The translations under genes were made by a program, and so were the position numbers. From NCBI RefSeq assembly GCF_000716785.1, contig NZ_JNYY01000016.1, forward strand, positions 179,259 through 243,258: a DNA stretch of 64,000 bases, in the 5' to 3' direction. The notes beneath the pieces were generated by a model. That model made no database searches, was not told the DNA's origin, and saw nothing but the letters and a program-made list of their open reading frames with translations. Below are positions 9,184-48,357 of this stretch, piece after piece. Within the stretch, counting starts at the first letter, position 1. Each line of letters opens with the position of its first letter. The stretch comes from Amycolatopsis vancoresmycina (lineage in GTDB: Bacteria > Actinomycetota > Actinomycetes > Mycobacteriales > Pseudonocardiaceae).

Positions 9184-9319
9184 GACGGCACCTCCCCGGA
9201 CCCGCGTCCGATACCGGCTGAGTCGCGGACCCCGGCCGTGCCGTTACGGCCGGCGCGGCCGCCATCGATTTCGGCGCCAACTGCCCCCGGACGCGGTGCT
9301 CGGTGATTAGGGTTCCGGG

Positions 9320-10282
9320 GTGGACCGAGTGGAACTGGGATTGCTGCAGGCGCTGCAGATCTACGGGCGGGTGCCGTTCAGCCAGGTGGCCGAGGTGCTC
9401 GGCGTGTCGGACCAGACCGTCGCGCGGCGCTACCAAGCGTTGCGCGCCTCGGGCGCCGTCCGGGTCGTGGGGCAGACGGCGCCGGACGCCGTCGGGGAGG
9501 AGTCCTGGCTGGTCCGGGTCGCCTGCACGCCGGGCGCGGCCGACGGGCTCGCCCGGGCGCTGGCCAACCGGCCGGAGACGTCGTGGGTGCACATCGCCTC
9601 CGGCGGCTCGGAGATCGTCTGCATGGTACGCACCCCGGCGCAGGCGGCGACGTCGTCGGTGCTCGCCCGCCTGCCCCGCACGCCGCCGGTGACCCAGGTG
9701 AGCGCGCACTGCGTCGTGCACGTCTTCTTCGGCGGCCCCACCAGCCAGCTGACCAAGTCCGGGCCGCTGACCCGGGCCCAGGCCGAGCAGTTCCGGCCAC
9801 CGGACCCGGTGCTCCCGGACGACCCGGTCGAGCTGACCGGCGGCGACCGCGCGCTGCTGGCGGAGCTGGCCCGCGACGGCCGCACCGGCTTCCGCGAGCT
9901 CGCCGCGGCGACCGGCTGGTCGCAGACGACAGTCCGGCGGCGGCTCGGCGAGCTGCGCGACTCGGGGGCGCTGTACTTCGACGTCGACTTCGCGCCCGAG
10001 GTGCTGGGGCTGCGCACGGCGGCGTCGCTGTGGCTGTCGGTGGCTCCCCGCCACCTCGAGTCCGCCGGGACCGCGCTCGCCGGGCACGCCGAGGTGGGGT
10101 TCGCCGCGGCCACGACCGGGCCGGCGAACCTGTACGTCAGCGTCCTGTGCCGCCACCCCCGCGCGCTCTACGGCTACCTCACCGGCCCGCTGGCCGCGCT
10201 GCCCGGCGTGTCCGCGGTGGAGACCGCCCCGGTCATGCGGACCCTCAAACGGTCGGAAACCGCCGTCCAGTCTTCGAAATAG
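9320..10282 (+). CDS. Lrp/AsnC-family transcriptional regulator, tandem two-domain type
   Basis: There are two HTH_AsnC-like N-terminal segments (LGLLQALQIYGRVPFSQVAEVLGVSDQTVARR... and DRALLAELARDGRTGFRELAAATGWSQTTVRRRLGELRDSG), each followed by an RAM-like domain. Confidence 0.8.
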   Translation: MDRVELGLLQALQIYGRVPFSQVAEVLGVSDQTVARRYQALRASGAVRVVGQTAPDAVGEESWLVRVACTPGAADGLARALANRPETSWVHIASGGSEIVCMVRTPAQAATSSVLARLPRTPPVTQVSAHCVVHVFFGGPTSQLTKSGPLTRAQAEQFRPPDPVLPDDPVELTGGDRALLAELARDGRTGFRELAAATGWSQTTVRRRLGELRDSGALYFDVDFAPEVLGLRTAASLWLSVAPRHLESAGTALAGHAEVGFAAATTGPANLYVSVLCRHPRALYGYLTGPLAALPGVSAVETAPVMRTLKRSETAVQSSK

Positions 10283-27168: not shown

Positions 27169-29157
27169 TCAGCCTTCGGTTCGCTGGGTGACGATCGTGG
27201 TCGGGGTCAGCTGCGCGGGCCGGCCGGCCATCGCCGCGGTCACCGCACCGACGCTGACGTCGAGCGCGAACGCCCAGCTGAACACCACGAGGATGTCGCC
27301 GAGTGTGCCGGTCCAGGCCGGTTCGAGCCAGCGGTAGGCGGCGAGCGACAGGACAACGGCGAGCACCGCGAAGCGCGCCAGGCCCACGGCCCAGCGAACG
27401 CCGGTGACGAGGACCTGACGCCGGCCCAGGGAGACCCGCGATCGCGCCACCGCGCGCCGCGCCGGGACGTGCAGCGCGGGCCGTGCCGGCGTCCCGGTGA
27501 AACCGGCGGCCGCCTCTGCGTCCGCTGACCGGCCGAGCTCGGTCACCCCCAGCTCCAGCAGTGCGGGAAGCTGAGCGGCGGCCGCGGAAAGGGGCAGGGA
27601 TCCGGCCAGCGCCGCGCGGACAGCGGCCGCGGCGGCCGCGCCCGGTGTGCGCTTGGCTTCCGGGAGGGCGGCGGCGAACACCTCGACGGCCTGCCCGAGC
27701 CGGTCGACGAGCTCGGCTTGCGCGTGCGCGGCGCCGTACGCGGCGGTCACCACAGCGGCGGACGAGGCGTCGGACGCGGGAGCGGTCAGCGCCGCCAGCT
27801 GACGAGCCCGGCCGGCGACCGGGCCGAACACGGGAGCGGGCCGGGCGGTGAGGACCTGCGCGAGCTGTCCTGCGCCCTCGGTGATTTCGTCCTGGTACTG
27901 GCGCGCGCTCCCGGCGATCAGGCCGACGTCCGTCTCGAGTTCGTCGAGCGCGGTCCGCGCACGGGAGAGGTTTCCGCGGTCCAGCAGCCCGTCGAGCTCG
28001 TCGAGGCGCTTCCGCGCCTTGGCCAGGAGGCCGGCCCACGGCACGGGTCCGGGCACCGGCCGATCCGGGCGCACCACCTTTTCGAGCTCGGGCAGGGCCG
28101 AGGCGACCTCCGCCAGTCCGGTGTCGAGTTCCTCGAGCGCGGTGTTGGCTCGGGTTTCGGCCTCGGTGACGAGGGTGTCCAGTTCTGCCGCCGGGCGCAG
28201 CAGCCACCGGCGGGACTTCGCGTCGAGGTCGGTGAGCAGGGCGCCGATTTCCCGGCGGAAGTGGTCGTCCTCCCGGCCGGCGGTCAGCTCTGCGAGCCGG
28301 GCGGCGAGCTCGGTGGCGCGGCCGGCGGCCGCGGCGCGGTCCTGCACGGCCACCAGGATCCGGCGGACGGACACCCCGGCGAACAGCCCCAGCAGGGCGA
28401 ACACCACGATCAGCGCCGGATCGCGCCGGGTGGTCACCCGGAACTGCACGGTCAGCGGCCGGGCCAGCTGCGCGGAGTCGAGCTGCACGGTGCGGGTCAC
28501 GGTCCCCAGCGGTGGCGTGCCGGTGATCCGGTACGGCAGCGTGAGCGCGGCCGGGCCGGTCACGGGCATGGCCGGGCCGGTGACCACGACCTGGTCGGCG
28601 CTGCTGTCCAGCCCGGTCACGAGGAGCTCGGTGATCCGCGTGTCGGGCCCGGCCCCGACGTGCAGTTCGGGCAGCTCCTCGCGGGTACCGCCGATGCCCC
28701 ACTCCGGGAACCACACGGTGCGCTTGACCTCGATCGCCGCCGTGGCCTGCAGATCGGCTCCTGGCCGCTTGAAGACGACGTCGACGAGTTCCGAACGCCC
28801 GCCGTCACCGACGGCGACCGTCGCCGTGTAGTCGCCGACGCGCTTCAGATCGTCGACGCGCACGTCGAAGCGCAGCGCCGGCACGGCGGGCTCGATCCGC
28901 ACGCCGATCGCCTGCATCGTCTCCGCCGGAACGGGCCTGCCGTCCCGCACGACCCGGACGACCCGGGCGGTGAGTCCCGTGACGGCGACCCCGGGTGCCG
29001 GGGTGAGCGGCAGCAGCACGACCGCATCGGCTTCGGCAGGCAGCGTCGCCGACGCCCCGGACGACAGCTCCACCAGGTCGTCCGCGCTCGCCGGGCCGGC
29101 CGCGAGCACCACGGCACCGATCGCGAACGCACCGGCGAGCAGGATCGACCGCCTCAT
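27169..29157 (-). CDS. Signal-peptide protein with an extracytoplasmic beta-rich domain, a TM helix, a long cytoplasmic coiled coil and two C-terminal TM helices (662 aa)
   Basis: The ATG at 29157 is preceded by GGAGG and overlaps the CHAT gene stop (ATGA). The signal peptide is MRRSILLAGAFAIGAVVLAAGPASA and the TM helix is ALIVVFALLGLFAGVSV. The coiled-coil region of about 330 aa is rich in Ala, Leu, Glu and Arg. The upstream part of the track ORF (to 29940) is junk. Confidence 0.6.
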   Translation of the reverse strand: MRRSILLAGAFAIGAVVLAAGPASADDLVELSSGASATLPAEADAVVLLPLTPAPGVAVTGLTARVVRVVRDGRPVPAETMQAIGVRIEPAVPALRFDVRVDDLKRVGDYTATVAVGDGGRSELVDVVFKRPGADLQATAAIEVKRTVWFPEWGIGGTREELPELHVGAGPDTRITELLVTGLDSSADQVVVTGPAMPVTGPAALTLPYRITGTPPLGTVTRTVQLDSAQLARPLTVQFRVTTRRDPALIVVFALLGLFAGVSVRRILVAVQDRAAAAGRATELAARLAELTAGREDDHFRREIGALLTDLDAKSRRWLLRPAAELDTLVTEAETRANTALEELDTGLAEVASALPELEKVVRPDRPVPGPVPWAGLLAKARKRLDELDGLLDRGNLSRARTALDELETDVGLIAGSARQYQDEITEGAGQLAQVLTARPAPVFGPVAGRARQLAALTAPASDASSAAVVTAAYGAAHAQAELVDRLGQAVEVFAAALPEAKRTPGAAAAAAVRAALAGSLPLSAAAAQLPALLELGVTELGRSADAEAAAGFTGTPARPALHVPARRAVARSRVSLGRRQVLVTGVRWAVGLARFAVLAVVLSLAAYRWLEPAWTGTLGDILVVFSWAFALDVSVGAVTAAMAGRPAQLTPTTIVTQRTEG

Positions 29158-31001
29158 GAGGCCTCCAGGACGACGTCGGCCGAGCCGAAGGCGACGAACG
29201 CCAGCGCCGGCACCTGTTTCTCCGCGAGGAGGTGCTGCCGGGCCGCCTGCATGGCCGCTCCGACGCTGGCCCCGCTCCCGGCGAGCGTGGCGACCAGGCA
29301 CCGGGCGAACTGGCGGGCGTGATCGGTCATGATCACGCATTCGGTCGCGACCACCCCGCTGGCCCCGACCGCGGTCAGCGCCGAGACGTGGTTGGTGAGG
29401 TTGCCGGGAAGCAGCACGCCCGAGCCGCAGGCCAGCAGCAGGATCAGCGGCGACGGCGCGGTCCACGACCCGGAGACGACCCGCTGTTCGGTGATCATCC
29501 GCGGGGTCAGCCGGATTTCGGCGGTGCCGCAGTCGATCTCCTGCGTGTCCGCGTCGTGGTGACCGAGGATGGTGACGACGGGCGCGCGGTCCCCCGGGTC
29601 CCACAGCAGGGACAGCAGCCGGTGTTCCTTCCCGAGTTTCCGCGGCGCACCGATCGCGGCCAGGTCCGAGACCAGGCCGGTCACCTCGGCGTCGACGACG
29701 CCCAGCGCGAGGTCGACCTTGAGCTTGCCGCGGTGGGGTACGAGGTGGCGGGCGAGGTCGCCGGACCCGTCGAGGCGTTCCTCGACCTGGTGGCGCACGC
29801 CCCAGAAGCCGCGGGCGCAGATCACCCGGCTTTCGCGGTGGTGGCCGCACCGCTTCCCCGAGCCGGGCGGGTCGAATCCCCAGCACACGGGTCCTTCCGG
29901 AGGGCCCGCCGGCAGGAGCCAGTCGTACAGCAGGGTCCACGGCACGGAGTGGTGCCGCTCCGCGCGGGTGATCTGGATGATCTCGTCGGATCGGAGGGTC
30001 AGCTCGCGAAGCGGCTCCCCCGCCGCACCGGGCAGTTCGCCGAACAGCGCCGCCCAGACCGCCCAGCCGCCCTCGGCGAGGGCGCGCAGGGCCGCGTCCG
30101 GCCCGAGCGTTCCCCGGGCCGCGTCCGTCATCGTGTCGCGCAGCGCGGGGAGGACCCTCGTCCGCACGTCGTCGTTCACCGGGAAGTGGAACACGGTTCC
30201 GGTGGACTTGACGAACACCCGGTGCCGGCCGTCACCGGCGTCCGCGTTGACGACCAGCGAAACGTACCGCGGCCGGAAGTCGGCCACATTGGCCCACGCC
30301 GTCGTCGCGGAGTACTCCAGCCGGGCCGCGGTCACCTCTTCGTCGAACCACTGCTCCCGTTCCCCGACCCGGGCGACCAGCCGGTAGGTCTGGATCAGGT
30401 TGTCCCGGTGCAGGACGTTGACCCGCACCCACGCCTCGCCGGGCTCGGCGGGTGCGCGCAGCTCGAAGACGACGGTCTCGGACGGCCCGGCCGGGGGCAG
30501 CCGCAGCGGCCGCACCGGCGGACCGTCCACGGTGAACCCGCCGGTGTAGATCACCACTTCCAGTTCGTGCCCCGACGCGGAATCCGGCAGCAGCGGGTCG
30601 ATGCCCGGTTGCGGCCCGCGTACCACCGACCACGGCGACCGGCCGCCGATCCGCGCGTCCAGCAGGTACTGCCCGCCTGCCTGCAGCGCGCACCGGTCGC
30701 CGACGAAGGGCGTCTTTTCGGCCGCCTCGATGCCGGCACCGCGGCGGAGGGTCAGGTCGAAGACCCGCGGCGGGTCCGGAAAGATGTACTTCCAATCGAA
30801 TTCGATTCTGTTGTACCGCGCCCGCGGGAAATCCCTCCGGAGCAGCACATCCGCGCTCAGCAGCCCGACGACCGCGGGCAGCGCAGCCAGCACCAGCAGC
30901 CACACGAGTTGCGCCCGGCCCGCTTCGACCAGGACGGCGGCAAGGACGAAGGCCAGCGTCGTCACGACAGCGACCAAGGCCTGCAGCCAGCGGATGCGCA
31001 C
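29154..31001 (-). CDS. Membrane-anchored CHAT-domain (caspase-like, clan CD) peptidase
   Basis: The N-terminus has 2 TM helices (LQALVAVVTTLAFVLAAVLV, LVWLLVLAALPAVVGLLSA). The C-terminal CHAT domain has a catalytic His in ILGHHDAD and a Cys in LILLLACGSGV. It is followed by the typical CHAT tail ALTAVGASGVVATECVIMTDHARQFARCLVATLAGSGASVGAAMQAARQHL. Confidence 0.75.
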   Translation of the reverse strand: MRIRWLQALVAVVTTLAFVLAAVLVEAGRAQLVWLLVLAALPAVVGLLSADVLLRRDFPRARYNRIEFDWKYIFPDPPRVFDLTLRRGAGIEAAEKTPFVGDRCALQAGGQYLLDARIGGRSPWSVVRGPQPGIDPLLPDSASGHELEVVIYTGGFTVDGPPVRPLRLPPAGPSETVVFELRAPAEPGEAWVRVNVLHRDNLIQTYRLVARVGEREQWFDEEVTAARLEYSATTAWANVADFRPRYVSLVVNADAGDGRHRVFVKSTGTVFHFPVNDDVRTRVLPALRDTMTDAARGTLGPDAALRALAEGGWAVWAALFGELPGAAGEPLRELTLRSDEIIQITRAERHHSVPWTLLYDWLLPAGPPEGPVCWGFDPPGSGKRCGHHRESRVICARGFWGVRHQVEERLDGSGDLARHLVPHRGKLKVDLALGVVDAEVTGLVSDLAAIGAPRKLGKEHRLLSLLWDPGDRAPVVTILGHHDADTQEIDCGTAEIRLTPRMITEQRVVSGSWTAPSPLILLLACGSGVLLPGNLTNHVSALTAVGASGVVATECVIMTDHARQFARCLVATLAGSGASVGAAMQAARQHLLAEKQVPALAFVAFGSADVVLEAS

Positions 31002-31103: not shown

Positions 31104-32897
31104 CTACTCCCCGGCCACGCCGTCCCCGTTCTCGATCGGCTTGGGCTGGTCCTGCCGGGGCAGCGTCTTGGTGCCGTCCCGCTGGGCTCCCCAGTCCTTG
31201 AGCACGTCCAGGATCTGCGCGGCCGGCATGACCCGGAGCAGGGCGTCGACGCTGTCGCTGCCGCCCCCGCCGCTGATGATCTGCGGGACCTGCGCCTTGG
31301 CGTACTGCGCCAGCACGCGCTCGACCCCGACGTACTCCGGCCCGAGCTGCTCGGCCAGCACCTTCACCTTGACGTACTTCAGCTTCTCGCGTTCCTCCTC
31401 GACCTTCACCCGCATCATCTCGATCTCGGCGAGCACCTTCTCGTTCTTCTTCTCCGCCTCGAGCTCGGCGAGCCGGGCGTTCGCCAGGGCGATCGCCTGT
31501 TCCTGCAGGGACACCCGCTTGCGGCGCTCGTTGATCTCCGGGTCGTCGCACTCGAACTCTTCGAGGTTCGTGCTCGTCGCGATGACCCCGATCGGGGCCA
31601 GCGCCTGCCGCACCTCACCCGTGAGGTCGTTGCAGAGCTCGTTGTACTTGGTGATGAAGTCGAGGATCGTCCGCTCGCCCGAAACCCGCCGGAAGTAACC
31701 GTCCACAGTGGACACCAGGACCTTCTCGACGAGCTGCTTCACGGTGGCCAGCCCGCCGATGTCCTTCGTCGTGCCGAACCGGAGGACCAGCTGCGGGGCC
31801 ACCTCCCGCGGGATCTGCACGGTCTGCTTCATGTCGAGGCGGACCGTGTGACCCTGCACGTTCAGCACGATCTGGTCGAGGGAGGCGTCCAGGTTGTCGT
31901 CGGACTTCTTGTGCTTCGACCACTCCAGGATCAGCTCGCGCGTCGGGATCCGGACGACGTGGGCGAACCAGGGGTTGAGGGAATAGCGCCCGGAGTCGTG
32001 CAGGGTCTCCTGCTGGACGCCCTTCCGGCCGCCGCCGGCCAGGAAGACCCACGGTTCCTGGAAGCTGTGGTGCCCGGGCACCGGCGGCGCCACCGACGAG
32101 CGGTTGCCGGGGCCTTCGACACCCACGTGCGTCACGACGACGCCGGTTTCGGCGACCTCGAGCTTGATGTCGCGCAGGTCCGCGAGGTCGATGCCCTCCC
32201 GCTCGGCCACTTCCGGCGTTTCGACGGTGATGACCTCGAACATCTCGGTGTTGATGTCGTAGTGGCCGCCGGTGAGGATCTGCTGCTGCGGCCCCTGTTC
32301 GCCACCGCCGGCGAGGAAGCTGACACCGTCCCGGAAGAAGTCGCACTCGACGTGCTTGGCCAGCTGGCTGCCGGGCGCCCGGATCCCGCCGACCTTGGCC
32401 TTGACGACGCCGATCGTCCCGTCCGGGACGCGGGTCCGCGGCACGGTGACGACGTCGAACAGCTCGGTGTTGATCTCGTAGGTGCCGCTGGTGAGGACCT
32501 GCTGCTGGGCCCCACGCTCGCCGCCGCCGGCGAGGAACGTGACGCCGTCCCGGAAGTCGTCGCACTCCACGTGTCTCGGCAGGGAGCCCTTCACCCGGCA
32601 GTTCCGGTCGACCTTGGCCTTGACGATGCCGACCATCCCGTCCGGCACGGTGACCCGCGGCACGGTCCGGACTTCGTGCAGGAAAGGCATCAGCCAGGTG
32701 CGGCTGTTGGACCGGAGCGTCCGTGCCTGGACGCCCCTTCCCCCGCCGACGCTCACCGCCGAGTCGTCGTCCCCCTCGGCCCGCCGGCCGAATTTCCGGA
32801 CGACGATCCCGACTTCCCCGGCGGGAACGGTGTGCAGCCCGGCCACCCCGAGGTACCCGGCGGCGGCGAGCAGCACGATGAGAACCACGAATTCCAC
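31104..32897 (-). CDS. SPFH/band-7 (flotillin/YqiK-like) membrane protein with three N-terminal repeats and a C-terminal coiled coil
   Basis: The GTG at 32897 is preceded by GGAG. It has an N-terminal TM helix (EFVVLIVLLAAAGYLGVAGL). There are three repeats of about 75 aa, each containing FLAGGGExGxQQQ. The coiled coil is rich in Glu, Ala and Lys (LQEQAIALANARLAELEAEKKNEKVLAEIEMMRVKVEEEREKLKYVKVKVLAEQ). The start lies 1 nt after the stop of the cyclase-like gene (TGAcGTG). Confidence 0.6.
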   Translation of the reverse strand: MEFVVLIVLLAAAGYLGVAGLHTVPAGEVGIVVRKFGRRAEGDDDSAVSVGGGRGVQARTLRSNSRTWLMPFLHEVRTVPRVTVPDGMVGIVKAKVDRNCRVKGSLPRHVECDDFRDGVTFLAGGGERGAQQQVLTSGTYEINTELFDVVTVPRTRVPDGTIGVVKAKVGGIRAPGSQLAKHVECDFFRDGVSFLAGGGEQGPQQQILTGGHYDINTEMFEVITVETPEVAEREGIDLADLRDIKLEVAETGVVVTHVGVEGPGNRSSVAPPVPGHHSFQEPWVFLAGGGRKGVQQETLHDSGRYSLNPWFAHVVRIPTRELILEWSKHKKSDDNLDASLDQIVLNVQGHTVRLDMKQTVQIPREVAPQLVLRFGTTKDIGGLATVKQLVEKVLVSTVDGYFRRVSGERTILDFITKYNELCNDLTGEVRQALAPIGVIATSTNLEEFECDDPEINERRKRVSLQEQAIALANARLAELEAEKKNEKVLAEIEMMRVKVEEEREKLKYVKVKVLAEQLGPEYVGVERVLAQYAKAQVPQIISGGGGSDSVDALLRVMPAAQILDVLKDWGAQRDGTKTLPRQDQPKPIENGDGVAGE

Positions 32898-32898
32898 G

Positions 32899-34080
32899 TC
32901 ACCACTCCGATTTCCGCAGCTGTCCGTGAACGGCCATGATCATGGACGCCCACTCGTCGTGCCATTCCGGATGTGTTTCGCGCTCCGGATTGCGCAATGT
33001 CGGGTAGAACGGCCCGCCCGCCTCCGCCCGCCGCGTGAACGCGGGATACGGGGGCGAAACCTCTTCCTGGTCCGCGCGCCAGCCGATCCGCACGCACACC
33101 TCGCGGAATTCGCGGCGCTTGGACAGTTCCAGGCCGGCCAGCCGCTGGTGCTGGGCGCGGAATCCCCAGGTGCCGCCGGAGGTGTCCGCCCACGCGGCGT
33201 CCAATTCGGTGATCAGCGCAAGCGGGAGCCGGGCGCCGTCCGACGCGCGCAGCCATCCGCTGCGGCCGCGGCCTGCCGCTTCGGCCAGCACCAGCGTGGT
33301 CACCGTGTCCGCGTGGTCGACTTCGCCGTCCTCGAGGAGTTTCCGGATCTGCCGCACCCGGTCCGTGAGCGCCGGATCCAGTCCGGGTTCGGGCTCCGGC
33401 GGCGGCGTCGCGGGCGGCGGCGACGTGCGTGCGGGCGCCGGCTCGGGCCGTTTCGGGAACGGGATCCGGAAGGGCTCGGCCCGGGTCTCGGGCGGCCGCG
33501 GCGGGAGCGCCGAAACCCCTGGTACGTGGAGGTATGCGGGTTCCCGGAATTCCTTGACCTCGATCCGGACCGGCCGGAACTGCCCGGGCCGCAGCCCACC
33601 GAGCCCCGATCCGACGACCTTCCGGTAAACCGGGCCGGAGATGATCTGCGCGAGGTGCGCGCGGGGATTCTCGTCCAGCGCGGCCCGCAGCGGCTTCGAG
33701 TCGAGCAAGCGGGCGGTGATGATCGAAGCCGGCCCGGCCCAGCCGAGCGGGCCGGCGGTCATGACATCGCTGTGCATGGCGACGCGCAGCCGGATCCGCA
33801 TTTCCGGTTCGTGATCTTCGTTGTGGTCCGCGAGCCGGATGTCCAGTTCGTTGACGAACCCGCGGACGACCGCGATCAAATCCACGTCGGGCGGCACCAT
33901 CGCCAGTTCGCCGTCGCCGCCGGGCTGCCGGTCCCACCGGTCCCGGCCGATTCCCGCGCTCTCCGCCGCCTCCCCCAGAATTCGATCGAGTTCCCGCTGC
34001 AGCACGACGTGCCTTCGGACGGGCCGGTCACTGTACTTCTGGATGTCGACTCCGAGCACGAAACGTTCGAAGAGAGACAC
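32899..34080 (-). CDS. Palm-domain nucleotidyl-cyclase-like protein (class III AC/GC-GGDEF superfamily) with a C-terminal domain of unknown function
   Basis: The GTG at 34080 is preceded by CAGGAGGT (VSLFERFVLGVDIQKYSDR). The metal-binding Asp residues are in GVDIQ and in QPGGDGELAMV, and the sequence IRLRVAMHSDVMTAGPLGWAGPASIITARLLDS matches the class III lrvGihtGpvvaGviG..y.v.GdtVNlAaRle pattern. The C-terminal domain of about 140 aa (GTWGFRAQHQRLAGLELSKRREFREVCVRIGW...WHDEW) is unassigned and may be GUN4-like. The longer track ORF (to 34647) has an Arg-rich junk leader. Confidence 0.55.
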   Translation of the reverse strand: MSLFERFVLGVDIQKYSDRPVRRHVVLQRELDRILGEAAESAGIGRDRWDRQPGGDGELAMVPPDVDLIAVVRGFVNELDIRLADHNEDHEPEMRIRLRVAMHSDVMTAGPLGWAGPASIITARLLDSKPLRAALDENPRAHLAQIISGPVYRKVVGSGLGGLRPGQFRPVRIEVKEFREPAYLHVPGVSALPPRPPETRAEPFRIPFPKRPEPAPARTSPPPATPPPEPEPGLDPALTDRVRQIRKLLEDGEVDHADTVTTLVLAEAAGRGRSGWLRASDGARLPLALITELDAAWADTSGGTWGFRAQHQRLAGLELSKRREFREVCVRIGWRADQEEVSPPYPAFTRRAEAGGPFYPTLRNPERETHPEWHDEWASMIMAVHGQLRKSEW

Positions 34081-34202
34081 GCAACCTCCTGCGCGGCGCC
34101 CCGACCGCTCGAACCGACGAGAGTGACCGGCCCGACAATACTCCCTTCGAATGCCGCTTCTGTGCCAGAAGGCACACAAGCAATAGTTTTTTTCCGCAAG
34201 CG

Positions 34203-34793
34203 TTACTCTTCCACGGCGCGGCCGGCGTTCGCGCGAAGAACGGGCATCGCCAGATCGTCGACGACGTGTTCGGCGAATCCCTCGTCCAGCGGCAGCCGCC
34301 ACAGCCACCGCATGAACATCACCGACGCGACGACCTCTTCGAACAGCCCGGCGTCGGCCGGGCCGGGCAGTTCCCCCCGTTCGACGGCCCGGCCGACCGC
34401 CTCCGCCGGGAGCCGCGCGCCGCTGGAGAACCGGGCCTCGAGCTCGTCGACGAGCTCCGGGTCGGCGGCGCGGGCCTGCACGAGGCCGACCGCGAGCCGG
34501 CCGTCGAACCCGGTGAGCACGTCGGCGAAGCGGCGGGTGTGGGCGAGCAGGTCGCCGCGGAACGTGCCGGTGTCGACGGTCCACTCGGTCTGCGTGCCGT
34601 GGTAGCGGGCCATGGCGGCGACGGTGATCTCCCGCTTGTTGCGCCACCGGCGGTAGATCGTGGCCTTCGACGTGCCCGACCGGGCGGCGACGGCGTCGAT
34701 CGTCATCGACACGTACCCGGCCTCGGCCAGCAGCTCCAGCACGGCGTCGAGGATGCGGGCGTCCCGGGTGGGATCCAGGGGGCGAACACTCAT
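34203..34793 (-). CDS. TetR-family transcriptional regulator
   Basis: The HTH is ILDAVLELLAEAGYVSMTIDAVAARSGTSKATIYRRWRNKREI. It is divergent from the ADH gene. Confidence 0.8.
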   Translation of the reverse strand: MSVRPLDPTRDARILDAVLELLAEAGYVSMTIDAVAARSGTSKATIYRRWRNKREITVAAMARYHGTQTEWTVDTGTFRGDLLAHTRRFADVLTGFDGRLAVGLVQARAADPELVDELEARFSSGARLPAEAVGRAVERGELPGPADAGLFEEVVASVMFMRWLWRLPLDEGFAEHVVDDLAMPVLRANAGRAVEE

Positions 34794-35912: not shown

Positions 35913-38885
35913 TCACGGCAGCAGATCGGGACAGATCTGCCTCGTCAGGGCGAGCAGATCCGCCTTTTCCTCGATCTCCGGGCCGTCGGCGCGCAGCAGT
36001 TCCCGCACCGTGCGGTCCACCATCGACGGCGGCAGCCGGTCGCGCAGGATCCGGAGCTGGTTCAGGAAGAGCACGCGGAACCGCCGGCGCGTTTCGTGGT
36101 CGTAGGGCGCGAAACCGTGCACGGCGTGTTTCAGGCAGGGGAAATACGCGGCCGCCAGCTCGTCGGCACCGGCTCCGCTCCCGGACTTGAGCCAGAGGGT
36201 GATCAGCGCGTTCGCGGGCGAAAGGGGTCGCGCGTCGCCGAAGCCGTAGAACGTGGTGATCATGTTCCCGTAGCCGTCCGCGAACGGCGCCAGTGCGTGG
36301 ACCGCGGTGTCGCCTTCGACGCTGCACAGGAACTCGATCTCCGACGCGAGCGTGTCGAAGGAGAACCGGATCCACCCGCGGTAGCTGTCCTCCCCGATCG
36401 GCTCGGCGTTCGGCTGGAACCGGTAGGACCAGTAGAGGTCGATGTCCGGCTCCGGGGCCTCGGACCGGGCCGCCCCGTTCGTGACCCGGACGACTCTCCT
36501 GCCGTCCTGCCGGCCGCGGAACAGCGTCAGCGCCTCGACGAGTCCGTGCCGTCCTTCGGCGGACAGCTGGGCGGCCCACAGCGTCGCGGTCTTCGTCCAC
36601 TCCCGGACGGGATGCTCGACATCGGGGAAGAGCTGGTCGGTCGTGACCTCGAACGGCGGTCCTGTGACCAGCAGCAGGCACAGGTTCGCGGAATACCGGG
36701 CACAGCGCGCGGGCACCAGGACCCGGTCCGGCCGGTAGCCGGAAAGGGTGGAGTCCCTCGGCAGCAGCGCGGCGCGGAACAGCGTCAGGAGGGTGTCGTA
36801 CACCGGGCGGAAGCGCGGCGCCGCCAGCTCGGCCACGATACTGCCGATGAAGGCGGGCACGGTCTTCCGGTCCGTGAGCGAGGCGAACGACAGCAACGCG
36901 TGGAAGAAGTCGTCGTTGTCGCGCCGCCCTTCGGCGAGGGCCAGCAGTTCCCGCACGGTGAGCCGGGCGATGAGGTACTCGCCGAACGTCGGGTGCATGA
37001 ACTCGTACGTCCGCAGGCGGAGGTGCTCGTCCTTGCGGGCCTGCGCGGTGTGGATGAAGTAGAAACTGCTGATCACCACCCTGGCACTGGCCTCCCCCAC
37101 CGGCAGCGCGGCGAGATCGGCGTCGAGCTCCGCCGCGGTGACCCACTGCCGGCCGCGGTTGAACATGGCGAACGCCGCGACCGACAGCCGGACCAGCTCC
37201 CCTTCGACCAGCCGCGTCACCTCCTCGTCGGGCTCGTCCGCGTGCTGCTTGAGCACCTCCCGCCGCGCGAACCCGGTCAGCAGGCCCTCGTAAAGCTGCA
37301 CCTGCCCGATGGCGTCCCCGTGCTCCGCGAGCGGGCACTCGGTGCGGTCGTAGATCGCCAGGAGCAGGAGCAGCAGGGGCTGGCGGGCCAGCTCGGCGTG
37401 CGGCCGCAGGACGTCGACGGTGAGCGCCGTGCCGTTGAGGCGGCGCCACGGGCCCAGCCACTGCTCGATCTGCTCGTCGTCGAACGGTTCGAGCAGCAGG
37501 CTGACCATTCCGCCGACCGGCCGGGCCCGGTCGGCCACCGACACGCGGCTGGTGACGATCACGACGACCGGGTGCTGCAGATCGGCCTCCCGCTGCTGGA
37601 ACCGGGCCAGCCGCTCGAGGAAGTCGGACTGGCTCGTGTTCGTCGCCTGCAGGAGTTCGTCGAACCCGTCGAGCAGGATCACGGGCACCGCGTCACCCGC
37701 CGAGCGGGCGACCTCGCGCCAGGGCAGCTGCTCCCCGGTCGAGATGCGGAGCCCCTGCTCGATCTGGGTCTGCACGTCGCTGTCGGCGGAAACCTCGCGC
37801 AACGGGACCGGAACGGCCAGGAAGTCGCCGGCCGGCAGCCGCGCCGCGAGCACTTTCGCCAGCATCGACTTCCCCGACCCCGGCTGGCCGAGGACGACGA
37901 GGGGCGCCTCGGTGGCCGACGGCGACGTCAGGTGCCCGATCAGGAACTCCTGCAGGTCGGTGCGGACGGGCTGGCCGTCCCACCACCCTTCGTCGGCGAT
38001 GTTTTCGTTCCCCACCTCGGCGGCGACCCGGAAGCGGGGGTTCACGTAGGCCTCGGCGACGGTGGGCAACCGGATGCCGGCCGGGGTCGCCGGCAGCAGC
38101 GGCCGGGACAGCACCGCCTCGTGGAACCGCGCCAGCCTCGCCCGCCGGTCGTCGGGGGTCCGCCCGGACGCGATTTCCGACAGCACCCGGGTGACCCCCG
38201 CCAGGCCGGCCCGCAAGCGGCGGAGCTCGGCCGTGACCGCCTGGTGGTCGGCCCGGCCCGCCCAGAAGGCGACCTCGGGGAAATCGCCGGCCAGGCGCCG
38301 GAACATGTCCTCGTACGTCGTGACCGCCTTGGCCGTGGCTTCGCCGAGCACCGCCGTTTCGGTGGCCCGCCTGCCCCGCTCGTCCAAGCGGTCCCACCCG
38401 GCCAGCCCGGTGAGGAATTCCAGCACCTCGCCCGCCATCCGGGTGTAGTGGCCGGCCAGGGCTTCGATCGTCTGCTCGTAGGACCGGTGCGGCGCCAGCA
38501 CGGGCGCCGGTGTGCGCAGCAGTGCGGTGGTGAACCGGTCCGGCGGGGTGAGCCCGAGGCCGGCGAGGTCGAAGGGCAGGCGAACCGACGCCACGGCGTC
38601 GAAGAACGCCGCCACCACGATGACGCTGTGCGCGGCGGACAGCTGTTCGCCGCGTTCCACCCGGCTGCTGCCGCGCAGCCGTGTGCTCAGCCGGGACACC
38701 AGTTCGCCGGTCAGCCGGCAGAATCCGGACTCCGCGTCGAACAGGCTCACCGCGACCGCGGACCCGGTGGCGGACAACGCGAACAGGGCACCGCCGGTCA
38801 GCTGGTCGAGGGCGGTCACCACCTTGTTCGGTGCCCCGCCACTCAGCACCAGCACGGCGTCCGCGTAGCTCATAGCCCTCGACAT
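35913..38885 (-). CDS. NACHT-family STAND NTPase (bacterial NLR-like) with an N-terminal helical domain of about 340 aa and a C-terminal helical sensor-like region of about 500 aa
   Basis: The ATG at 38885 is preceded by GGAGGTGG (MSRAMSYADAVLVL). It has Walker A VVLGQPGSGKSMLAKVL, Walker B VILLDGFDELL and the downstream IVTSR. I see no TPR or WD40 repeats. The track ORF start at 39047 adds 54 improbable residues. Confidence 0.8.
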   Translation of the reverse strand: MSRAMSYADAVLVLSGGAPNKVVTALDQLTGGALFALSATGSAVAVSLFDAESGFCRLTGELVSRLSTRLRGSSRVERGEQLSAAHSVIVVAAFFDAVASVRLPFDLAGLGLTPPDRFTTALLRTPAPVLAPHRSYEQTIEALAGHYTRMAGEVLEFLTGLAGWDRLDERGRRATETAVLGEATAKAVTTYEDMFRRLAGDFPEVAFWAGRADHQAVTAELRRLRAGLAGVTRVLSEIASGRTPDDRRARLARFHEAVLSRPLLPATPAGIRLPTVAEAYVNPRFRVAAEVGNENIADEGWWDGQPVRTDLQEFLIGHLTSPSATEAPLVVLGQPGSGKSMLAKVLAARLPAGDFLAVPVPLREVSADSDVQTQIEQGLRISTGEQLPWREVARSAGDAVPVILLDGFDELLQATNTSQSDFLERLARFQQREADLQHPVVVIVTSRVSVADRARPVGGMVSLLLEPFDDEQIEQWLGPWRRLNGTALTVDVLRPHAELARQPLLLLLLAIYDRTECPLAEHGDAIGQVQLYEGLLTGFARREVLKQHADEPDEEVTRLVEGELVRLSVAAFAMFNRGRQWVTAAELDADLAALPVGEASARVVISSFYFIHTAQARKDEHLRLRTYEFMHPTFGEYLIARLTVRELLALAEGRRDNDDFFHALLSFASLTDRKTVPAFIGSIVAELAAPRFRPVYDTLLTLFRAALLPRDSTLSGYRPDRVLVPARCARYSANLCLLLVTGPPFEVTTDQLFPDVEHPVREWTKTATLWAAQLSAEGRHGLVEALTLFRGRQDGRRVVRVTNGAARSEAPEPDIDLYWSYRFQPNAEPIGEDSYRGWIRFSFDTLASEIEFLCSVEGDTAVHALAPFADGYGNMITTFYGFGDARPLSPANALITLWLKSGSGAGADELAAAYFPCLKHAVHGFAPYDHETRRRFRVLFLNQLRILRDRLPPSMVDRTVRELLRADGPEIEEKADLLALTRQICPDLLP

Positions 38886-39021
38886 CCCGCCACCTCCACC
38901 CGGTAGTCGGCGGGACACGGGGCGGTGTTGCGGTATTGCGGCTTCCGGTCCGGCGGGGGTTCCCGCATTACCCCCTTGACGCGCGCCGCCACCCGGTACG
39001 GTGCGCTCGCAGGAGGTACGC

Positions 39022-40029
39022 ATGCCCTCGATCCGCGACGTCGCCAAGCAGGCTCAGGTCTCCACGGCCACGGCTTCCCGGGCCCTGCGCGGGCTTCCCG
39101 CGGTGACCGCCGAGACGCGGGCGCGAGTCGAACGCGTGGCCGCCGAACTCGGTTACGTCATCCCGTTCAACGCCTCGAGCCTCGCTTCGGGCCGGACCAA
39201 TTCCGTCGGGATCGTGGTGCCGTTCGTCTCCCGGTGGTTCTTCGGCACGGTGGTCGCGGGTGCGGAGACCGTGCTGCGCGAAGCCGGCCTGGACCTCGTC
39301 GTGTACGGGGTGCCGGGCGCGCCGAGCCGGGAACGGTTCTTCGCCGAGCTGCCGGTGCGGCGGCGGGTCGACGCGGTCCTCGTGCTGTGCCTGCCGCTGA
39401 CCCGGTGCGAGGCCGACGCCCTGCTGGCGCTCCGGATCCCGGTGGTCCTCGTCGGCAGCACCGCCGACGGCATCTCGTCGGTGCGCATCGACGACGTCGC
39501 CTCCTCGGCCCGGGCGGTGCGGCACCTGGTCGAGCTCGGGCACCGCCGGATCGGGCTGCTCGGGGAAAGCGACCCGCCGCCCCACGGGTTCACCACGCCC
39601 GGCCTGCGCCGCAACGGCTACCTCCGGGTCCTGGCCGAAGCGGGCATCGAACCCGACCCGGACCTGGAGGTGGCCGGCCGGTTCACCGCCACCGAAGGCG
39701 AAGCCGCGATGGCCCGCCTGCTCGCCCGGCGGAACCCGCCGAGCGCGGTGTTCGCGATGTCCGACGAGATGGCGTTCGGCGCGCTGCAGGCCCTGCGCCG
39801 GGCCCGGGTCGACGTCCCCGGCGGCATGTCGGTCATCGGCTTCGACGACCACGAGCTGGCGGCCGCCCTCGACCTTTCGACGATCGCGCAACCGGTCTTC
39901 GCCCAGGGGGAACGCGCGGCCGGGCTCCTGCTCGACCAGCTGCGGCGGCAGGCCCCGCCCGCGGACGTCGTGCTCCCGACCGAGCTGGTCCGCCGGGGCA
40001 CCACCGGACCGGCGGCCGCGCTGAACTGA
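39022..40029 (+). CDS. LacI-family transcriptional regulator
   Basis: The ATG at 39022 is preceded by AGGAGG. The HTH is SIRDVAKQAQVSTATASRALRG and a periplasmic-binding-protein-like sugar-binding core follows. Confidence 0.85.
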   Translation: MPSIRDVAKQAQVSTATASRALRGLPAVTAETRARVERVAAELGYVIPFNASSLASGRTNSVGIVVPFVSRWFFGTVVAGAETVLREAGLDLVVYGVPGAPSRERFFAELPVRRRVDAVLVLCLPLTRCEADALLALRIPVVLVGSTADGISSVRIDDVASSARAVRHLVELGHRRIGLLGESDPPPHGFTTPGLRRNGYLRVLAEAGIEPDPDLEVAGRFTATEGEAAMARLLARRNPPSAVFAMSDEMAFGALQALRRARVDVPGGMSVIGFDDHELAAALDLSTIAQPVFAQGERAAGLLLDQLRRQAPPADVVLPTELVRRGTTGPAAALN

Positions 40030-45676: not shown

Positions 45677-47986
45677 TCAGCGATCCTGGCCCAGCTTGTT
45701 CAGCTGGTACCGGCTCACCGAGTCCGTCTTCTCGTCGCGAAGCGTCAGGTACACGACACCGTTCGCCTCCACATCGGCGGTCAGCACGATGTCACCGCCC
45801 GTCGCCACGACGGGGATGGTCCCGAAGACCAGGCCCGATGATCGCGGAATCTCGACGAACGTCATCTCGTGGGTGGTGCCGGCCTTGCCGGTCAGGCGGA
45901 AGCTTTCGGCATCCCTGGTCGGGATCGTCCTCGACGAATCCAAGAGGGTCATGACTTCTTTGTTGCTTCCGGCGTCGGGGGACACCAGGTGCAGGCTGCC
46001 TTCCTTCCCCGACACGCGAACGCCCACCCCGAACCGCAGCGCGTTCAGCAGCAGGAAGCCCCGCTGGAACCCGGTCAGCACGCCGGCCTGGGTGCCGAGA
46101 CCGTGCGCCACGGCGGTCTCCTGGTAGCTCGAGACGACTTCGGCACCGGGGAGGACCGAGGCGATCTGCTCGGACACGGTGAAGATCTTCGTGCCCTGCC
46201 CGGCCAGGAGGACCTTCCCGCCGCGGCTGATCCACGCGCTCACGTCCTCGCCGAACCGGAGCCGGGGGAAGACGGCGCCGAGGGTCGAGCGGATGGTGTC
46301 GTTCAGCTCGGCGGTGAGCTGCCGGAACCGCGCGCGGTCGAGTTCGATGCTGATGTCGACCAGGCCGTGGGAACCGCCGTCGAGGTCGGTCAGCAGCATG
46401 GTCGTGGCATCCCGGTAGCCGAGGTCCCGCTTGGCGCGCTCGGCCTCCCGGCGCAGCTTGTCGCGCACGGTCGACGTCAGTTCGCCGTGCCACCCGTGCA
46501 CCGTCCGCAGCTGGTCCTCGGCGTAGGCCACCAGCGCGTCGTCGAAGTCGAGCCCGCCCACCTCGTTGCTGCCGGTGACCGCCCTGACCTCCGCGATCCC
46601 CTCCCCGGCTTCGACCAGCGCGACGTCGAACGTGCCCCCGCCGAGGTCGACGACCAGGTAGTCCTGCTCCTGCTCGGGGGTCGCCATCAGGGTCAGCAGG
46701 GACGCGGCGTTCGGCTCCCCGATCATCCGGGTGACGGTCAGGTCGGCCAGTTCGAAGGCTTGTTCCAGCGTGTCGATCTGGCGCAGCGTGAAGTTCGCCG
46801 GGTGGGAGGCGAGGCACCGCCGGACCGGCGTGCCGAGCGCCTCCTCGGCGTTGCGCCGGAGCGATCGCAGGATCAAGCCGACCGCGAGCACCGGTTCGAT
46901 GCTGCGGCCGTTGACGGAATAGCCGGCCGAGCGCCCGAGATCGCGTTTCGCGTGCCGGATGGTCGACGACGGCCGGTACGGCGTCGCCTCGACGGCCGCG
47001 GCGCCGACCAGGTAGTCCATGTCCGGCAGGAAGTGCAGCACGGAGGGCACCAGCGGCCGTCCGTCCGGCCCGGGGAGCAGCAGGACGTCACCTTCGGGCC
47101 GGTACCACGACACGACGGAGTAACTCGTGCCGAAGTCGATGGCGAGCAGCGGATCGTCGACGGCACCGGGAGGAACCACCGGAGCGACGCGCCTGGCCCG
47201 CCGCTCGGTGCCGATCGGCGTCGTCGCGCGCCACTGGTTGCGCGTCCGCTCGGAGACGAGTTCGAGGTGCTGCACGCCGAGCGGCTCGACCCGGGAGTGC
47301 GGTCGCTGGTCGGGCTTCCCGTGTGCCCTGGCCAAGGCCGGCACCTGGGTCGAAAGGTAGGCATCGAGTTCGTGGATCGTCCGGCACCGGCCCGCGGGAC
47401 TGAACGCGGAACACAGCGCTTCGGTGAAGACGCCCGCCCTGATGCCGTCGACCTCGTACGACACCCGCCCCGGACGGCACGAGCAGAAGGAGACGACACC
47501 CGGCGGGCACAGGGCGTCGACGTCCACGCGAGGCAGCGACGCCGAAGCCGCCTTCCCGCCGTCCAGGACGTTCCGGCAGGCATCGAGGAACAGCACGAGG
47601 TGCGGCGCTGCGGCCGCACCGAGGTAGCGCACGATCACGTCGAACCGCAGGGCCGTGTCCTCCACGGCCGCCCGCACGCAGTCGATCGGCAGCAGGTACT
47701 GCGTGTTGTCGCCGGCTTGGAAGCCGTGGCCGGAAAAGAAGAAGTAGAGGATCCCGTCGGGCCGGGGATCGGCCGCCATCCGGGTGAGGTGCCGCAGCAG
47801 GTTGGTCCTCGTCGGCCGGTGCGACGCCGGCATGTTGTCGTGCAGGAGGACGAGGTCTGCATCGTCGACGCCGCAGACCGTGCGCAGCGTGTCCGCGACC
47901 CTCGCCGCATCGGTCTGCGCGTGGCGCAGCGGAGCGATGTCGGGGTCCTCGTAGCCCGCGCAGCCGACCACGAGCGCGCGGTTCAC
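45677..47986 (-). CDS. Caspase-domain (peptidase C14)-Hsp70/actin-fold ATPase fusion protein
   Basis: The N-terminal caspase domain has a His-Cys dyad (FFFSGHGFQ ... LVLFLDACRN). The C-terminal part has Hsp70 nucleotide-binding-domain motifs: LAIDFGTSYSVVS (phosphate 1), RMIGEPNAASL, VVDLGGGTFDVALV (phosphate 2), GSNEVGGLDFDDALV, VLLAGQGTKIFTVSE (adenosine), YQETAVAHGLGTQAG. A beta-rich tail follows. Confidence 0.8.
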   Translation of the reverse strand: MNRALVVGCAGYEDPDIAPLRHAQTDAARVADTLRTVCGVDDADLVLLHDNMPASHRPTRTNLLRHLTRMAADPRPDGILYFFFSGHGFQAGDNTQYLLPIDCVRAAVEDTALRFDVIVRYLGAAAAPHLVLFLDACRNVLDGGKAASASLPRVDVDALCPPGVVSFCSCRPGRVSYEVDGIRAGVFTEALCSAFSPAGRCRTIHELDAYLSTQVPALARAHGKPDQRPHSRVEPLGVQHLELVSERTRNQWRATTPIGTERRARRVAPVVPPGAVDDPLLAIDFGTSYSVVSWYRPEGDVLLLPGPDGRPLVPSVLHFLPDMDYLVGAAAVEATPYRPSSTIRHAKRDLGRSAGYSVNGRSIEPVLAVGLILRSLRRNAEEALGTPVRRCLASHPANFTLRQIDTLEQAFELADLTVTRMIGEPNAASLLTLMATPEQEQDYLVVDLGGGTFDVALVEAGEGIAEVRAVTGSNEVGGLDFDDALVAYAEDQLRTVHGWHGELTSTVRDKLRREAERAKRDLGYRDATTMLLTDLDGGSHGLVDISIELDRARFRQLTAELNDTIRSTLGAVFPRLRFGEDVSAWISRGGKVLLAGQGTKIFTVSEQIASVLPGAEVVSSYQETAVAHGLGTQAGVLTGFQRGFLLLNALRFGVGVRVSGKEGSLHLVSPDAGSNKEVMTLLDSSRTIPTRDAESFRLTGKAGTTHEMTFVEIPRSSGLVFGTIPVVATGGDIVLTADVEANGVVYLTLRDEKTDSVSRYQLNKLGQDR

Positions 47987-48357
47987 GTCCCGGTGCCCTC
48001 GGTACGGCGGAAGACCAGCTTCACTCCCCCCTTGATTTCGCTGGAGAAGGACCCGACGAGCCGGACTTCGCCCTTCGCGGTGAGGTCCAGGTTCACCTCG
48101 AAGGCATCGAGCCCGAACGCTTCCGATGCCTCCCCGGCCCGCCGGAAGGCGTTGGCCAGCCGCGAGCAGACGGCCGACAGGTTCCGCGCCAGCTCTTCCG
48201 AGTCCAGTTCACCGATCCGCCCCGCGACCTGGCGCGCGGTCGAGAACAGGCCCTTCTCACCGTCGACGCCCGGATCCACCCACACGATCGGGATGCCGGC
48301 TCCGCTCACCGCCGTCACTGCCTCGCCCTCGCCTTCGTCCGACGCACCAGCTTGCAC
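47983..48357 (-). CDS. Small Trypco2-like (CU044_2847-like) protein, about 110-124 aa, start uncertain
   Basis: Its stop overlaps the start of the caspase-Hsp70 gene (ATGA). The C-terminal pattern LDAFEVNLDLTAKGEVRLVGSFSSEIKGGVKLVFRRTEG resembles trypsin-co-occurring domain 2 proteins. Start candidates are the GTG at 48357 and an internal GTG 13 codons in. Confidence 0.45.
   Translation of the reverse strand: MQAGASDEGEGEAVTAVSGAGIPIVWVDPGVDGEKGLFSTARQVAGRIGELDSEELARNLSAVCSRLANAFRRAGEASEAFGLDAFEVNLDLTAKGEVRLVGSFSSEIKGGVKLVFRRTEGTGT

Follow-up and report, generated by a model that had tools for sequence, protein, structure and literature searches.

GUN4 domains are known from cyanobacteria, where fusions to kinase, caspase, trypsin and TIR domains have been read as tetrapyrrole sensors (Kaur et al. 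2020; PMC7159879) and where Arg214 of SynGUN4 is essential for porphyrin binding (PMC1084334). SPFH proteins form large rings (PMC12624060); the SPFH shoulder of major vault protein (MVP) binds NAD+/ADP-ribose/ADP (PMC12280208), and TEP1, an active TIR-like NADase, is housed inside the vault (bioRxiv 10.64898/2026.05.01.722283). Here we describe a locus in a 64,000-nucleotide (nt) stretch of Amycolatopsis vancoresmycina contig NZ_JNYY01000016.1 (the window, whose coordinates are used throughout) in which a gene that almost certainly encodes a class III-fold nucleotidyl cyclase homologue fused to a GUN4 domain is followed directly by a gene for an SPFH protein. GUN4 itself (PF05419; 1y6i, 1z3x) is a tetrapyrrole-binding cofactor of Mg-chelatase. 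Whereas the GUN4 fusions of Kaur et al. are described as cyanobacterial, this one belongs to the Actinomycetota, has a cyclase as its fusion partner and comes with an obligatory SPFH partner gene. Actinobacterial cyclase-GUN4 or TIR-GUN4 proteins with an SPFH partner are mentioned neither by Kaur et al. (PMC7159879) nor elsewhere in the literature searched. The interest lies at the system level, in a cyclase family that has gone unannotated and in an undescribed GUN4-SPFH module that carries cyclase, TIR or kinase heads.

The two genes and the parts of the fusion protein are as follows.

32899..34080, minus strand: complete cyclase-GUN4 coding sequence, 393 amino acids (aa) plus a TGA stop codon (translation, identical NCBI protein, codon-position G+C content)
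34085..34090, minus strand: ribosome-binding site AGGAGG, 4 nt 5' of the GTG start (read directly from the sequence)
33523..34080, minus strand: divergent class III nucleotidyl cyclase (palm) domain, as predicted, aa 1-186
33376..33522, minus strand: Pro-rich linker, predicted to be disordered, aa 187-235 (model confidence, secondary structure, poor conservation in the homologue alignment)
32902..33375, minus strand: GUN4-fold helical domain, aa 236-393, with the motif GFFPTLRNP...W.D.W...H
31104..32897, minus strand: membrane-anchored SPFH/Band-7 partner gene, 597 aa (Pfam Band_7, gene junction, structural model, Foldseek)

The open reading frame (ORF) of the fusion protein runs on the minus strand from a GTG start at 34080 to a TGA stop at 32899-32901, exactly where an earlier note, made from the sequence alone, had placed it, and the four peptides quoted there (GVDIQKYS, QPGGDGELAMV, IRLRVAMHSDVMTAGPLGWAGPASIITARLLDS and GTWGFRAQHQRLAGLELSKRREFREVCVRIGW) were all found in the translation. 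The 393-aa product is supported because the G+C content of its three codon positions (0.75/0.51/0.85) follows the coding pattern expected in a 70%-G+C genome and because a public protein of the same length, P0001 (NCBI, 'GUN4 domain-containing protein [Amycolatopsis vancoresmycina]'), is 100% identical to it. We rejected a longer, mechanically called ORF of 582 aa (to 34647), which overlaps a TetR gene (34203-34793) in another frame and lacks the coding signature at third codon positions (GC3).

The feature of this locus that we consider most informative, and that the earlier note overlooked, is the obligatory SPFH partner together with the exchange of the cyclase for TIR domains. The GTG of the SPFH gene lies 1 nt past the TGA of the cyclase-GUN4 gene in the window, with a GGAG just 5' of it. 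All 13 genomic loci that have the complete cyclase-GUN4 architecture (the window, L001, L003, L009-L017 and L047) carry an SPFH gene immediately downstream on the same strand, and in most of them the junction measures about 15 nt or less or is a short overlap. We then used the SPFH partner as query against metagenomes, where only loci with readable upstream DNA are informative, and in every such locus an X-GUN4 gene lay directly 5' of the SPFH gene. The identity of X varied as follows.

L089-L094 (metagenome): X is a cyclase
L095-L097 and L107 (metagenome): X is a TIR-TIR pair
L099, L101, L103 and L106 (metagenome): X is a single TIR
L102 (metagenome): X is a Ser/Thr kinase plus a TIR-like segment

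TIR-GUN4 genes followed by SPFH genes were also found in L005 and L111, Actinomadura formosensis and Streptomyces galilaeus being among the carriers of this pair, and a TIR-cyclase-GUN4 gene followed by an SPFH gene in L008. From this constant pair with its varying N-terminal enzyme it follows that GUN4 plus SPFH is the invariant core of the module and that the enzyme (cyclase, TIR, TIR-TIR, kinase-TIR or TIR-cyclase) is exchangeable. The pairing is specific to this clade and is not a general property of YqiK-like flotillins, because distant YqiK-like SPFH homologues from outside the Actinomycetota (at most 32% identity; Pelomonas and a verrucomicrobial metagenome-assembled genome) had no GUN4 neighbour. 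The genes that flank the module vary between genomes. Exchange of enzyme heads on a constant core is typical of conflict systems.

In L008 the TIR/SEFIR-cyclase-GUN4 gene (8001-9828; P0052) appears to have a truncated GUN4 domain, and the SPFH gene still follows. The rest of GUN4 was matched by tblastn past the annotated stop (9631-9828), so that the truncation could be a frameshift, a sequencing error or gene decay.

The N-terminal domain was assigned mainly from its fold. An AlphaFold2 (AF2) model of the 393-aa protein, built on 80 homologues, had a mean predicted local distance difference test score (pLDDT) of 89.9 and consisted of a palm domain (aa 1-185) with the order beta-alpha-beta-beta-alpha-beta, a linker (aa 186-235) without secondary structure in which the pLDDT drops to 47-63 at aa 190-220, and a helical domain (aa 236-392). 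In structure comparisons, the palm domain matched class III adenylyl and guanylyl cyclases (5mbg, 2w01, 3mr7, 1wc1 and others) with Z scores of 12-15.6 over about 160 residues, the Pycsar cUMP (cyclic UMP) synthases 7r65 and 8jsz with Z 13.9 and 13.7 over 165-168 residues, and the Pycsar cCMP (cyclic CMP) synthase 8jsf with Z 11.9 over 166 residues. GGDEF domains reached Z 10.9 at most, over about 121 residues, and mCpol Z 9.3 over 105 residues. All 50 of the 50 best Foldseek matches of the domain were class III cyclases. From these matches we therefore conclude that the domain, as modelled, is a class III-fold cyclase domain; the expectation of a nucleotidyl-cyclase palm was borne out, and the suggestion that it is intermediate between class III cyclases and GGDEF was not. 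Sequence comparison was less telling: when the PDB was searched with the full-length protein or a family profile, cyclases came up only at E 0.19-0.8, and the resulting profile alignments served to map residues, not to prove homology. With hhalign, the family profile matched a fragment of 3mr7 at 67.7% probability and E 4.9e-5. A match of the NCBIfam model phiSA1p31 (E 0.063) was judged spurious.

The C-terminal domain is a genuine GUN4 domain. It gave the only Pfam match of the whole protein (PF05419, aa 242-349, scoring 45.4 bits where the gathering cut-off is 29.2), and its model superposed on Synechocystis GUN4 with Z 14.0 over 138 residues. The earlier note had called this domain unassigned; in the public record the protein is named for its GUN4 domain, and the note's accompanying guess of a GUN4-like domain was right.

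The active-site residues were mapped by aligning the family profile to the class III cyclase 3mr7 and by hhalign, which agreed, and their retention was counted in 246 family members aligned to the profile. Three of the positions are listed first.

34045..34047, minus strand: codon of D12, predicted first metal-binding Asp (VDIQKYS), aligned with the beta1 Asp of 3mr7; Asp in 229/246
33913..33915, minus strand: codon of D56, predicted second metal-binding Asp (GGDGE), aligned with the GDG Asp of 3mr7; Asp in 239/246
33709..33711, minus strand: codon of R124, predicted transition-state or phosphate-binding Arg, aligned with the catalytic Arg of 3mr7; Arg in 243/246

Thus both metal-binding Asp residues that had been proposed are present, at the proposed spacing (44 residues from D12 to D56), and GGDGE was correctly taken for a class III GDG motif. 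R99, on the R-x-G-x-H strand, corresponds to the Arg of 'YRIGI' in 3mr7 and is kept in 244 members, and K176, kept in 233, is probably the C-terminal phosphate-binding Lys. Other residues, specific to this family when compared with class III cyclases, are equally well kept (W49 in 239, N87 in 240, H103 in 234 and S148 in 240 members), and E58 of GDGE also belongs to this family-specific invariant set. The metal- and triphosphate-binding residues thus appear to be under strong selection, which argues for catalysis, and we lean, with modest confidence, towards a catalytically active synthase of cyclic nucleoside monophosphates (cNMPs).

What such an enzyme might make is suggested by its relatives. 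A word-indexed search returned about 100 homologues, and an exhaustive profile search 4,386 clusters (at 50% identity) with E ≤ 1e-3 and 1,053 with E ≤ 1e-30; with the residues so widely kept, the pattern is not a product of chance. Relatives were present in 170 species-representative genomes, all of them Actinomycetota, and the majority stand alone, at about 250 aa. Of 80 loci surveyed by tblastn, 67 held stand-alone cyclases, and in about 55 of these 67 a gene for a Crp-type transcription factor (cNMP_binding plus HTH_Crp_2) adjoins the cyclase gene; in three loci (L004, L052 and L088) a PycTM gene lies beside the stand-alone paralogue. The conserved, operon-like cluster seen in L004, L006, L007 and about 55 further loci (within L018-L088) comprises genes for a cNMP receptor of the Crp type, for the cyclase and for a STAND-like protein of some 770 aa, followed by further genes, either for a protein of roughly 510 aa and a DUF4407 protein or, in Micromonospora, for a 269-aa protein. 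No protein of this cluster convincingly matched a PADLOC model, and the paralogue of L004 gave no PycC match; the cluster looks like a second undescribed cNMP-based system. The linkage extends to gene fusions: P0106 joins the cyclase to a complete Crp protein (cNMP_binding plus HTH_Crp_2), and P0139 to a cNMP_binding domain. That cNMP receptors lie next to these cyclases, or are fused to them, time and again is the best evidence at hand from which we infer that the family makes a cyclic mononucleotide. In other proteins the cyclase is joined to NB-ARC-TPR (P0176 and P0242, STAND NTPases), to TIR-AAA-methyltransferase (P0202) or, as TIR-cyclase-GUN4, to the core described above (P0052), and a SEFIR/TIR fusion is also found among the cyclase-domain fusions (set P0106, P0139, P0176, P0242, P0202 and P0225). 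Judged from these architectures, the cyclase behaves as a mobile signalling head domain.

The stand-alone cyclases end, past a low-complexity linker, in short conserved tails that differ by clade (for example P0060 and P0084; alignment columns 300-372), one clade having 'GRDLYISGRDLYV', another 'IRTGDIRVxGQNAIGxGATAIGSVGRD' and a third 'VFGFNE'. Stand-alone paralogues were also found on 30 large Streptomyces plasmids and on Nonomuraea and Embleya replicons (records H1-H10), where those annotated at the match are labelled 'hypothetical protein'; the plasmid search otherwise gave only cyanobacterial matches, presumed to be GUN4 proteins. Among 50,697 phage genomes there was no relative.

In class III cyclases an active site forms only between the two partners of a dimer, and TIR NADases have to oligomerise. 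Since GUN4 and SPFH remain the same and only the N-terminal enzyme changes, we propose that GUN4 may serve as an adaptor or regulator by which a nucleotide-converting enzyme is anchored to an oligomeric, membrane-bound SPFH scaffold. A cue that alters this scaffold or the GUN4 domain, possibly a membrane perturbation, an infection or a bound ligand, would bring the enzyme domains together, and such induced proximity would switch on either kind of enzyme, since the one needs dimers and the other oligomers. In the window, the cyclase would then convert a nucleoside triphosphate into a 3',5'-cyclic nucleoside monophosphate, to be read by Crp-family receptors encoded elsewhere. The observations beneath this proposal are the fold, the retention of residues that bind metal and phosphate, the coupling of the two genes, the exchange of N-terminal domains and the Crp-type receptors linked to paralogues. 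A setting in conflict systems is suggested by the fusions of the cyclase domain to NB-ARC-TPR and TIR/SEFIR and by the NACHT-NNH7 and caspase-HSP70 genes near it in the window. As a whole, a scaffold-tethered, proximity-activated cNMP synthase within a modular conflict or stress system seems to us an evenly balanced proposition.

The properties of the partner fit a scaffold. It matched Pfam Band_7 (PF01145) at E 5.3e-14, and the AF2 model of the 597-aa protein (pLDDT 84.8) shows an N-terminal transmembrane (TM) helix, about four beta repeats, the SPFH domain and a 65-residue helix (453-518); flotillin/YqiK-type SPFH proteins likewise have a Band_7 domain followed by a long helix. In the model, the succession of beta repeats, SPFH 'shoulder' and long helix recalls MVP. 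The best full-length Foldseek match of the model was MVP (E 6e-11 over about 600 columns, with a TM-score of only 0.35), an MVP repeat fragment comprising R1-R7 matched at E 5e-5, and the next matches were cage subunits of prohibitin, HflK/C, erlin, stomatin and flotillin. Unlike MVP, the partner carries an N-terminal TM anchor and, in a predicted model, about four beta repeats where MVP has nine. As an analogy, and not as a sign of homology between the systems, a vault with TEP1 inside might be set beside TIR-GUN4 or cyclase-GUN4 with its SPFH protein. A bolder version of the proposal, which we regard as doubtful, is that X-GUN4 plus SPFH forms an unrecognised family of actinobacterial conflict systems in which a vault- or flotillin-like membrane cage docks a nucleotide-converting enzyme (the cyclase here, TIR NADases or kinase-TIR elsewhere) through GUN4 and activates it by induced proximity when the membrane or cage is disturbed, for instance by a phage. 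If true, this would make the module a prokaryotic counterpart of the eukaryotic vault, and in organisms that are not phototrophs GUN4 would have to be seen as a domain for cargo or adaptor functions, not as a porphyrin sensor.

A number of findings speak against a scaffold-tethered cNMP synthase. Unlike the class III cyclases to which it was compared (PF00211; bPAC 5mbg, Cya2 2w01, CyaC 1wc1 and 3mr7), the domain goes undetected by the PF00211 hidden Markov model (HMM), besides having its own invariant residues, a GUN4 fusion and an SPFH neighbour. Of the two Pfam HMMs against which the earlier note had suggested aligning the N-terminal 190 residues, PF00211 and PF00990, neither matched at E ≤ 1; on these models alone the domain would belong to neither family, an outcome that the note had named as refuting its reading, and it is the fold and the profile alignment that rescue class III. 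No cyclase model of NCBIfam or PADLOC matched the N-terminal domain either. The transition-state region that the note had recognised is incomplete: R124 is in place, but the Asn expected four residues before it, which in class III cyclases orients the ribose, is replaced by I120, and the position is V in 171, I in 49, T in 14 and N in only 7 of the 246 members (V or I in 220). The canonical base-specifying pair, Lys/Asp for ATP or of the Glu/Cys type for GTP, is absent as well; Lys is replaced by Q52 (Gln in 171/246) and Asp by G113 (Gly in 233/246). As judged from these losses, cyclase activity may be reduced, altered or absent, and because the ribose-orienting Asn and the canonical pair are missing, neither substrate nor rate can be predicted from these residues, whose inspection the note had proposed. 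We found no cNMP receptor in the window (by tblastn for Crp and PycTM homologues and by Pfam on the neighbours) or in the cyclase-GUN4 loci examined. In L001 and L003 the module is flanked by ordinary metabolic genes, not by defence islands. Literature searches on GUN4, SPFH, cyclase, TIR and anti-phage terms found neither a description of the module nor a defence phenotype or expression data for it. Finally, Pfam found no Vault repeat in the partner, and at a TM-score of 0.35 the resemblance of its model to MVP may reflect only shared generic elements.

Other explanations have to be weighed as well, one being that the domain is a dead enzyme that only binds a nucleotide or dimerises, the protein acting within the SPFH complex as a regulatory or adaptor subunit. 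The replaced Asn and the pair Q52/G113 are what one would expect of such a protein; both metal Asp residues, together with two Arg and one Lys that would bind the triphosphate, persist in 229-244 of the 246 relatives, among them clusters less than 50% identical to one another, and without catalysis this would be difficult to account for. Moreover, paralogues adjoin or are fused to cNMP receptors, and TIR domains, themselves enzymes, can take the place of this domain, so that we think a pseudo-enzyme unlikely. We give about the same low credence to a Pycsar-type pyrimidine cyclase (PycC), which upon phage infection would make cCMP or cUMP and so activate an effector that binds cNMP and either kills the cell or arrests it. 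The 44-residue spacing of the metal Asp recurs in EaPycC (D102/D146; PMC11224242), R51-Q52 just before D56 loosely recalls the CTP-specifying R142/Q144 of that enzyme, and a PycTM gene stands beside three stand-alone paralogues. However, the distance of R51/Q52 from D56 is unlike that in EaPycC, and the PycC specificity residues (PMC11224242) do not align in register with the window protein. No PADLOC PycC model matches it, and it differs from the PycC structures (7r65, 8jsz, 8jsf) in domain architecture and partner gene. No PycTM, PycTIR or other cNMP-binding effector was found in the window or in any cyclase-GUN4 locus, and what normally adjoins the paralogues is a transcription factor of the Crp type, not a toxic effector. 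The other family that had been considered, with the domain as a divergent or inactive GGDEF diguanylate cyclase, is highly improbable: the domain fails both PF00990 and the GG[DE]EF signature, its matches to GGDEF structures cover only about 121 residues, where those to class III reach about 163, and fall 4-5 Z units below the latter, and D-I-x-x-Y-S around the first Asp together with the R...R/K phosphate set are class III features, in agreement with the Foldseek result.

A further reading concerns the other end of the protein, where GUN4 might bind haem, a porphyrin or a bilin, as its cyanobacterial and plant counterparts do, and set cNMP output allosterically, making the protein a metabolic or redox sensor and not part of a conflict system; Kaur et al. 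proposed such sensing for cyanobacterial GUN4 fusions (PMC7159879). Alignment of the family profile with cyanobacterial GUN4 extends as far as the conserved Pro of the loop (Syn P208; 'GFFP' against 'GHLP'), and conservation is seen both at the hydrophobic 'palm' positions and in the G-x-x-P loop motif. Porphyrin-bound GUN4 also associates with membranes (PMC2757182). Past the end of the profile alignment, though, an ungapped continuation places Arg214 on a non-conserved Q/E, and the invariant Arg of TLRNP lies three residues earlier; the C-terminal motif FFPTLRNP...W.D.W is distinctive, and the equivalent of Arg214 is uncertain. The hosts are non-photosynthetic Actinomycetota, in the case of Amycolatopsis without a Mg-chelatase or chlorophyll context, and no chelatase gene was found among the neighbours. 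Ligand sensing alone would also leave the strict coupling to SPFH unexplained. We therefore rate a tetrapyrrole-regulated cyclase as doubtful; it is partly compatible with the scaffold-tethered synthase, since the ligand could be the cue.

The only PADLOC model matched by the fusion protein was PDLC04062, one of many PD-T4-6 Ser/Thr-kinase family models, whose C-terminal positions 311-404 match the GUN4 region (E 1.5e-9). This shows that a kinase-GUN4 architecture is included among the defence-candidate models of PADLOC, and in the kinase-TIR-GUN4 locus L102 a kinase head does occur with SPFH. PD-T4-6, in contrast, is a single-gene kinase system, and the match, being limited to the GUN4 region, does not show that validated PD-T4-6 contains GUN4.

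Several other elements lie around the two genes in the window.

34161..34176, no strand assigned: perfect 16-bp palindrome TGTGCC-N4-GGCACA, a possible operator, 81-96 nt 5' of the cyclase-GUN4 start
29154..31001, minus strand: 615-aa protein with an N-terminal TM segment, accessory (weak Peptidase_C25/caspase-like Pfam match, E 0.055)
27169..29157, minus strand: signal-peptide/multi-TM protein of roughly 660 aa, accessory (frame-specific GC3, translation)
35913-39047, minus strand: NACHT STAND NTPase, 1044 aa, with NNH7 (E 1.5e-58) and NACHT, bacterial NLR-like
45677-48208, minus strand: fusion of a caspase (Peptidase_C14, E 5e-20) to an HSP70-like ATPase (E 3e-50), 843 aa

The palindrome falls in the 122-nt intergenic region upstream of the cyclase-GUN4 gene and has the TGTG-N8-CACA shape of Crp-type sites. 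It is conserved in L047 (TGTGCCTTACGGCACA), the nearest relative, and L017 has a similar palindrome, GTGTCA...TGACAC. Statistically it is weak: it is the single match in the window at one mismatch or fewer, yet 17 of 100 shuffles also held at least one. A Crp-site-like element in front of a cyclase gene hints at possible feedback. A scan of the operon for promoters and terminators gave no signal above chance.

The 615-aa protein had no sequence match in the PDB, and among the loci compared its gene was found only in the window and in L047. The signal-peptide/TM gene, which the mechanical ORF list does not give as a separate ORF, begins with an ATG that shares its bases with the stop codon of the 615-aa gene (ATGA). 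We regard the 615-aa gene and the ATGA-coupled membrane-protein gene as accessory because the former recurs only in the closest relative. The NACHT-NNH7 gene lies 1.8 kb upstream of the cyclase gene, with the TetR gene and an oppositely oriented zinc alcohol dehydrogenase gene in between. Neither the 615-aa gene nor the NACHT gene, a homologue of which was found only in the window, was accepted as a core component. The caspase-HSP70 architecture is typical of prokaryotic conflict systems.

Our combined findings leave the observation that started this work confirmed and its interpretation partly supported. They bring to light a large family of class III-fold cyclases (50% identity clusters numbering at least 4,386) that escapes the present models of Pfam, NCBIfam and PADLOC and whose members are annotated as 'hypothetical' or by their GUN4 tail only. 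The non-canonical active site, with no Asn and a Gln/Gly pair, can reveal which residues class III cyclases really need, and what nucleotide is produced by an enzyme of this kind. If the resemblance of the partner to MVP is meaningful, it would link bacterial modules to the NADase and NAD+-binding biology of the eukaryotic vault. GUN4-SPFH coupling and head swapping offer a concrete hypothesis for what GUN4 does outside photosynthesis and for the cargo of specialised bacterial SPFH scaffolds, and if the scaffold-tethering model holds, the module could become a new kind of system. The Actinomycetota are the main antibiotic producers, and the Crp-type, STAND NTPase and TIR neighbourhoods of the family suggest that they have a substantial unexplored layer of cyclic-nucleotide signalling.

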